Source: Octopus vulgaris (taxonomy: Eukaryota). Taken from it: DNA of 64,000 nucleotides. The DNA is taken from NCBI GenBank assembly GCA_951406725.2, contig OX597814.1, forward strand, positions 744,001-808,000, given 5' to 3'. A program made the translations under genes and the position numbers. How positions within the stretch are numbered: the first letter of the stretch is position 1; each line of letters opens with the position of its first letter. A model generated the notes under the pieces. It searched no databases, was not told the origin of the DNA, and saw only the letters and a program-made list of their open reading frames with translations. Positions 60,262-60,636 of this stretch are shown in pieces.

Positions 60262-60636
60262 ATACAGTTCTATATTTAAAAGATGAGGAATTATTTACAT
60301 TATTTACATTCGACGGATATTTGTCCTCCTCTTGTTTGTTGTTAACACAACGTTTCGGCTGATGTACCCTCCAGCCTTCATCAGGTGTCTTGGGGAAATT
60401 TCCAACCTGGGTTCTCATTCCTAAGCTATTTTTTGATGTTGTTGTTGTTATTATTATTGTTATTGTTAGGTCGCTGCTTAGAATCGAACTCGGAATCTTG
60501 GGGTTAGTAGCCCGCGCTCTTAACCCTTACATCATATGCCCACGAGCATATGGCGTAGTGGTTAAGGCTGGAGGGTATATCAGCCGAAACGTTGTGTTAA
60601 CAACGAACAAGATGAGGACAAATATCCGTCGAATGT
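60262..60636 (-). mobile_element. tRNA-like head plus hammerhead Penelope module, with inverted partial copy
   Basis: Minus copy 60262-60545; inverted deleted copy 60546-60636. Confidence 0.85.
60344..60389 (-). ncRNA. Minimal type I hammerhead ribozyme motif with intact core
   Basis: GACAC-CTGATGA-A-GGCTG-GAGGGTACAT-CAGCC-GAAACGTT-GTGTT. Confidence 0.82.

Follow-up and report, generated by a model that had tools for sequence, protein, structure and literature searches.

A ~316-bp repeat module at positions 60,262 to 60,636 of the 64,000-nucleotide stretch of Octopus vulgaris DNA analysed here (the window) is almost certainly a pLTR, the terminal repeat of an element of Penelope/Poseidon type about 2.7 kb long, and the tRNA-like head with which it begins is probably where the RNA of this element starts. 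Coordinates written +n or -n take the first G of this head (GGGCATA before the A box) as origin. Among 30 loci selected solely by ORF-end sequence, 29 have the head after the ORF stop; the remaining locus breaks off after a few head bases. The 3' half of the module, hammerhead included, encodes the ORF N-terminus from an ATG near +150. The module tail continues in frame into the ORF in locus L061, as it does in most of the 30 loci selected by the ORF start. Two relatives, P0009 and P0149, have an N-terminal peptide similar to this module-encoded start. A full pLTR-ORF-pLTR copy (L470) starts at +37, and tandem junctions are found in L061 and L478. The head after the stop and the module running into the ORF therefore point to the pLTR of a decayed Penelope-type element. 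The initial annotation had proposed a Penelope with an acquired Pol III promoter; the fixed A/B-box head upstream of a minimal hammerhead stands (29/30 ORF-end loci), the use of Pol III being a matter of likelihood.

The unit is about 2,694 nt long with an ORF of about 830 codons, in which Pfam recognizes the reverse transcriptase (RT) domain PF00078 (RVT_1, E 1.4e-10); homologs of the ORF carry PF00078, PF28514 and PF26215. The majority model also holds residues that we take to be of the GIY-YIG type and CCHH-like. Pfam called no domain in the endonuclease piece of the ORF, and a Pfam GIY-YIG search returned only other Penelope-like element (PLE) families and one probable host nuclease. Relatives at 54-68% identity occur among unnamed proteins, one cluster of which includes barnacle proteins; identity is 44% to the Anolis protein P0087 and 38-44% to echinoderm proteins, and no relatives were found in the viral contigs searched. 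The element thus combines the features of EN+ Penelope elements: one ORF with RT and C-terminal GIY-YIG, a pLTR in partial tandem arrangement (L470, L061, L478), a minimal type I hammerhead with core and stems in the pLTR, and the optional 30-40 bp tail and inverted 5'-truncated arm. Seven insertions in a random 550 kb, too few for end mapping, put the family at about 36,000 insertions (95% range 14,000-73,000). Copies have a mean identity of 92% to the working model. The family looks dead in the O. vulgaris genome because none of 149 scored RT matches has a full-length open frame (the longest has 572 aa), and direct tests are limited for that reason. The same genome holds a young, possibly active PLE family (L307, L312 and others) with many intact 781-aa frames and a pLTR with tandem CCAAT/CRE motifs and a TATA, where a regular expression found no canonical hammerhead.

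The focal locus consists of two head-to-head arms sharing a palindromic TGCCC-AC-GAGCA centre (60537-60548; Table 1). All the parts first reported there (A box, anticodon-like arm, B box, (AAT)n and hammerhead) are present. The first three are real but sit on different arms, the A box on the plus arm and the other two on the minus arm. The plus-arm deletion, from +23 to +194, sits at a 3-nt microhomology. The frame of 60262..60418 (-) continues into the RT in intact tandems; calling this locus and the module at 43.7 kb free of coding sequence was not quite right, as the part of the module from about +150 starts the ORF.

Table 1. Copies of the module in the window and their parts.
Feature	Positions	Strand	Remarks
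Complete pLTR module, +1..+316	60262..60541	-	Long arm of two-armed insertion
tRNA-derived head, long arm	60480..60541	-	Sequence and likeness to genomic tRNAs
Decayed A box, long arm	60534-60524	-	Sequence
Anticodon-like arm, long arm	60513-60501	-	Sequence
B box, long arm; ends TTCT, not TTCC	60491-60480	-	Sequence
(AAT/AAC)n microsatellite, between head and coding start	60436..60467	-	Sequence
First PLE ORF codons	60262..60418	-	ATG 60418-60416, putative start
Minimal type I hammerhead	60344..60389	-	Core and stems; predicted cut after 60349
Short inverted arm	60537..60636	+	Head -7..+23, then +194..+264
Exact, intact A box TGGCGTAGTGG	60551-60561	+	Short arm
5'-truncated copy with GIY-YIG ORF end	3015..3486	-	Stop 3302-3300
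Solo module, start about -4	43719..44042	+	Hammerhead GAAA core decayed
Fold-back head fragment	54917..55010	+	+23..+49 inverted, +25..+89 direct

The copy near 3 kb had been described as a module behind a GIY-YIG ORF end, and the ORF end is borne out by a match to the C-terminus of the PLE protein P0009 (54% identity over 48 aa, E 8e-15), Pfam giving no match when this ORF end was searched alone. In this copy (3015-3486, -), TATAA lies at 3304-3300, the head starts at 3270 and the hammerhead occupies 3134-3102. The inverted junctions reported at the focal locus and at 54917 hold up as a two-armed insertion and a fold-back fragment, respectively, the latter flanked by a 12/13 direct repeat (54904-54916, 55011-55023). 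The solo module at 43.7 kb adjoins a fragment at 43326-43700 (-) that, like 18433-18942 (-), we take to come from a mariner-like transposase. The window also holds a LINE-type reverse transcriptase fragment (25114-27000 (-) and 24657-25208 (-)) with a zinc-finger-like part downstream, and very long (AAT)n microsatellite tracts of about 3 kb (55230-58370 and 63350-64000). Elsewhere, the (AAT)n of the module is often interrupted by another retroelement (L039, L046, L049, L107, L109) and seems to be an insertion target. At L104 (G000:C3:6631345-6634470), a tandem of at least four head-containing units without hammerhead lies upstream of one complete module.

The hammerhead core, CTGATGA...GAAAC at 60384-60352, has a palindromic ACGT in place of stem III; stem I is GACAC/GTGTT, and the RNAfold minimum free energy structure contains stems I and II. 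The motif is not a chance occurrence, as an 18-mer from it has 8,921 exact matches genome-wide and the reversed control has 0. Where loci were chosen without regard to the hammerhead (117 copies), the commonest non-CpG substitution falls at the free N7 position (20 T>A), and deletions at +219..+221 occur in 17-20. The hammerhead is uncut in the copies examined. It is the usual motif of PLEs, for which activity as a dimer or with the help of a protein is predicted (PMC4209133, PMC11167929). Two other hammerhead-like families occur in the window. A core CTGACGA...GAAAC at 5756-5779 (-) belongs to a different repeat family, with no tRNA head upstream; a third family has two copies (23487-23525 and 47175-47212, +), the first of which resembles PLE insertions in having an inverted arm some 300 nt upstream.

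The tRNA likeness of the head rests on two tRNA-Arg genes of the same genome, to which it is identical at 47 and 49 of 73 positions (z 8.2 and 7.3) in a comparison covering 25 distinct sequences at 30 genomic loci and the isotypes Arg, Ala, Thr, Cys, Lys and Glu only. As in tRNA-derived SINEs, this 5' head carries both an A and a B box, which fit what we take to be the tRNA-promoter consensus. Its acceptor stem is broken. ARAGORN at default settings called no tRNA in the module, Rfam called neither a tRNA in the head nor a hammerhead in the motif, and relaxed ARAGORN called five heads among 330 loci with much noise. A degenerate pattern for a tRNA-Ile parent, itself a guess, gave 0 matches. 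The boxes that remain may go back to a SINE from which the head once came. A SINE consisting of the head alone was rejected as the donor: 24 of 30 head-anchored loci scored positive for the downstream part within 600 nt (some via an intervening insertion or a second arm), and the other six, which include the fold-back fragment of the window and two near-duplicate pairs, have no common tail. In the window, a 5S rRNA match at 21693-21793 (-; 45.9 bits, above the Rfam gathering score) is a gene copy or a 5S-derived repeat, and a weak tRNA-like stretch at 48640-48718 (-; Rfam E 0.83), with an apparent anticodon-region insertion, adjoins a common SINE.

No head was found in 79 related loci by a regular expression that recovers only 9 of 30 copies of the family itself, nor in five related loci read by eye. 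Two candidates for a second tRNA-headed PLE were discarded: the tRNA-like stretch of L392 is unrelated flank, and L393, with its TTTT-free ORF, has a T-rich pLTR without head. No tRNA-headed pLTR is described in the titles, abstract openings and passages that our literature search covered, with most subscription journals, Dfam and Repbase outside it; its novelty is provisional, and the family may already be catalogued in Dfam or Repbase.

Exact 18-mer counts across the genome rise from 948 at -197 and 936 at -28..-11 to 5,660 in the head and 8,921 in the hammerhead (controls, 0), a six-fold step at the head. Ends were mapped around 101 hammerhead anchors, the first 100 listed on contig C1 and one more found in a retrieved stretch, which are biased to less decayed copies because an exact match was required. 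Among these listed matches, the anchors fall into 87 insertions, whose 5'-most ends lie upstream of -20 in 13, at -20..+20 in 40, at +21..+65 in four, in or near the microsatellite in 17 and at +136..+185 in 13; some end calls at -12..-19 are fold-back head copies resembling upstream sequence. Of the 53 listed insertions that reach the head, 40 stop there, where 3-5 would be expected from neighbouring stop rates. A peak of 5' ends at the tRNA head had been proposed as a sign of SINE-like behaviour, and a sharp one is present, in these mapped ends as in the 18-mer step. Again among the matches listed, 3' ends form two clusters (55 of 101 at +260..+290 and 45 at +310..+316, with one at +248), 49 of the 87 insertions are inverted, and hammerhead pairs within 1 kb are on the same strand in one case versus head-to-head in 13.

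The coding element itself also has copies ending at the head. Four head-start copies (L275, L279, L291, L293) continue 230-340 nt into the ORF, so the coding element had templates with their end at the head; in two RT-anchored insertions (L368, L371) the inverted arm ends there as well. A full-length copy starting exactly at the head was not found, L470 starting at +37, and the upstream repeat starts at the head in 0 of 30 RT-anchored loci. Of 13 insertions bearing the ORF 5' part, four stop at the head and nine pass it, so that read-through or tandem RNA must also have been a common template.

The explanation that we prefer, taken as a whole, has in our judgement about an even chance of being right: a decayed 2.7-kb Penelope whose RNA was made from the head, likely by Pol III, and whose short copies are run-off cDNAs. 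The family structure, the step at the head, the two 3'-end clusters, the head-to-head arms and the lack of a distinct lineage of short copies are direct observations. RNA would start at about -7..+1, with the A and B boxes of the head as an internal, likely Pol III, promoter. By analogy with Anolis PAc (PMC11167929), the protein would nick both strands of AT-rich DNA, and priming would take place within either repeat of the RNA, at +260..+290 or +310..+316. Primed in the downstream repeat, synthesis would give the ORF-bearing truncated copies; primed in the upstream one, or on a short RNA that starts at the head, it would give a ~320-nt run-off cDNA ending at about -7..+1, which would often fold back on the TGCCC/GGGCA palindrome or join a second arm. 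Every cDNA reaching the RNA start would rebuild the internal promoter.

The peak at the head could have arisen in another way, if no RNA starts there and a hairpin at -14..+10 (CCATA..TGCC/GGCATATGG), predicted in the ORF-linked context, or the tRNA-like fold, stops RT or makes it snap back on read-through RNA. Short copies would then be ordinary 5' truncations with a hot spot. Among the matches listed, 29 of the 40 head stops are inverted and 11 lie at +6..+19, where a stall would fall, but the hairpin's 3' arm had already been passed in 21, which stop at -1 or upstream of it. A fixed block should moreover hit all templates alike, yet 40/53 hammerhead-anchored insertions (among the matches listed) and 4/13 of those bearing the ORF 5' part stop at the head (Fisher p=0.006; the two sets were selected differently). 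Such a difference speaks against structure alone as the block and is compatible with short RNAs that start at the head. We therefore regard the hairpin explanation as improbable.

Given that RNA starts at the head, Pol III is rather likely to be the polymerase. In its favour, the A and B boxes are intact at the place where 5' ends peak. Neither CCAAT nor TATAWAW is found in the pLTR upstream of the hammerhead, a region in which CCAAT/CRE/TATA motifs occur in another PLE family of the genome, a young one (read by eye); the lack of TATAWAW is not special, as only 2/19 related pLTRs have one. A TATAA at -34, about 30 nt before the 5'-end peak, overlaps the ORF stop codon and would place a start at about -4, the centre of the peak. 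Pol II could thus have made the RNA from this TATAA, with the tRNA-like stretch as a captured 5' UTR passenger; capped RNA would be easier to translate, and PLE pLTRs are described as holding Pol II promoters (PMC2377424, PMC8557442). This is not a probable account, as TATAAG is a poor TATA box that overlaps the Leu-stop codons and has no CCAAT partner, and the TATAA is included in only 13/53 head-reaching insertions (among the matches listed). Some Pol III genes, too, use a TATA element near -30. Transcription by Pol II would in addition leave the TTTT-free unit unexplained.

The 2,694-nt unit model has no sense-strand TTTT, and the real copies have 8 runs in 38.8 kb (38 pieces), against 163 in 63 kb, about 2.6 per kb, for 37 T-matched related ORFs. 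Among 79 related metagenome PLE loci, the median over the 68 stretches that reach 1,200 nt is 3.3 TTTT runs per kb. TTTT is present in 12/13 ORF stretches of other PLE families of the same genome and in 18/19 related pLTR regions (20 picked, one without a hammerhead match, several being related copies). The probability of such an absence was 0.075 and 0.14 under composition nulls and 0.024 and 0.003 under codon nulls. As a sign of Pol III, the TTTT-free strand is suggestive only, since 2/68 relatives also have TTTT-free ORFs, neither with a tRNA head. G4 runs are absent from the unit model too. In contigs of four guessed-RNA and four other runs the module was covered far more than the ORF, which is uninformative on expression, start and strand.

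The initial annotation had further proposed that the solo modules form a SINE or retrozyme of their own, transcribed by Pol III, self-cleaving and mobilised in trans by the Penelope enzyme. The six-fold step at the head, the large excess of solo modules and a consensus module without TTTT agree with this, as do the more frequent head stops in hammerhead-anchored than in ORF-5'-bearing insertions, and non-autonomous PLE derivatives are known (PMC8557442; bioRxiv 10.64898/2026.07.22.740005). A non-autonomous SINE lineage should be distinct from its partner, and no diagnostic differences were found between 117 head-start and 38 ORF-linked copies (arms counted separately). Non-CpG variants are common to both sets (G64A in 34/117 vs 16/38, T190A in 11/117 vs 5/38, and also G202A, T206C and A259G). 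Over about 45 sites tested, the lowest p within the module was 0.007, at the microsatellite edge, with 0.04 at two sites; no module variant split the sets below p=0.04 except at the microsatellite edge and at -8. Retrozymes would show tandems with at least two hammerheads; among the matches listed there is one same-strand pair per 101 anchors, a check confined to the surroundings of these anchors. No permutation of copies at the predicted cut is seen, but a copy beginning after the core would escape this anchoring. The PAc priming site is at ORF nt 111-118, and the template RNA has to reach nt 172 (PMC11167929); the solo modules, which by hammerhead alignment would end ~50 nt short of this, would be poor templates for the family protein. 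Hammerhead mutants of PAc still insert. The whole module is the element's own pLTR, and the shared variants, the rare tandems and the Penelope-type 3' ends therefore reveal no separate SINE or retrozyme lineage. We consider that one is doubtful at best.

Carried to its full extent, the preferred explanation describes an autonomous coding retrotransposon transcribed by Pol III: the Pol II promoter of Penelope would have given way to one captured from a tRNA, the 2.7-kb unit would have lost all its TTTT, and the uncapped RNA would have served for translation besides giving rise to SINE-like run-offs by the tens of thousands. We put this forward only tentatively, as it is unlikely that all of it holds together. 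In Kojima's argument (PMC10886601), the processivity of Pol III limits promoters of this kind to elements shorter than about 1.3 kb, and the autonomous partners have to use Pol II. Pol III promoters are generally regarded as a feature of short non-coding passengers (SINEs, TRIMp3). If true, a coding Penelope with a Pol III promoter would break this rule, the translation of uncapped RNA with a hammerhead near the start codon would become testable, and SINE-like families could arise from the 5' end of an element without a separate master. Even on a conservative reading, a highly abundant repeat of "SINE-like" appearance proves to be the terminal repeat of a Penelope, a point of importance for repeat annotation.

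Four kinds of known system come close to the element. With the Penelope/Poseidon PLEs (Anolis PAc, PMC11167929; D. virilis Penelope, PMC2377424) it shares RT and C-terminal GIY-YIG in about 830 codons, a pLTR in which a promoter is expected and whose hammerhead overlaps the ORF start, 3' ends in two clusters separated by 30-40 nt, and inverted 5'-truncated arms; two priming sites are described for PAc, and a tail for PLEs (PMC11167929, PMC8557442). It differs in that its pLTR begins with a tRNA-derived A/B-box head, whereas the PLE promoters described in these sources are of Pol II type. In PMC13282606, 190 Penelope-like families are counted, and a term search found no mention of hammerheads. 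Like the schistosome Sm-alpha/Sj-alpha SINE-like elements (PMC6765202), the module has a Pol III-type promoter followed by a hammerhead. Sm-alpha forms tandems and is released by cleavage that leaves the promoter at the 3' end; here, in contrast, the module is the repeat of a coding element, the head is kept 5', the hammerhead is uncut and tandems are rare. Non-LTR retrozymes (PMC7229834; bioRxiv 10.64898/2026.07.22.740005) resemble it as short type I hammerhead units of similar size related to PLE pLTRs, but are defined by tandem repeats with at least two hammerheads, of which the single pair in 101 anchors among the matches listed is the counterpart; the main text of the bioRxiv paper does not mention tRNA, promoter or Pol III. 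The TRIMp3 elements Cassandra, Helenus and Ajax (PMC10886601) likewise have a small-RNA-derived Pol III promoter in the terminal repeat, where a SINE insertion may have brought it. They are LTR elements shorter than 1.3 kb and non-autonomous, whereas in O. vulgaris the head lies in the repeat of the coding element itself.
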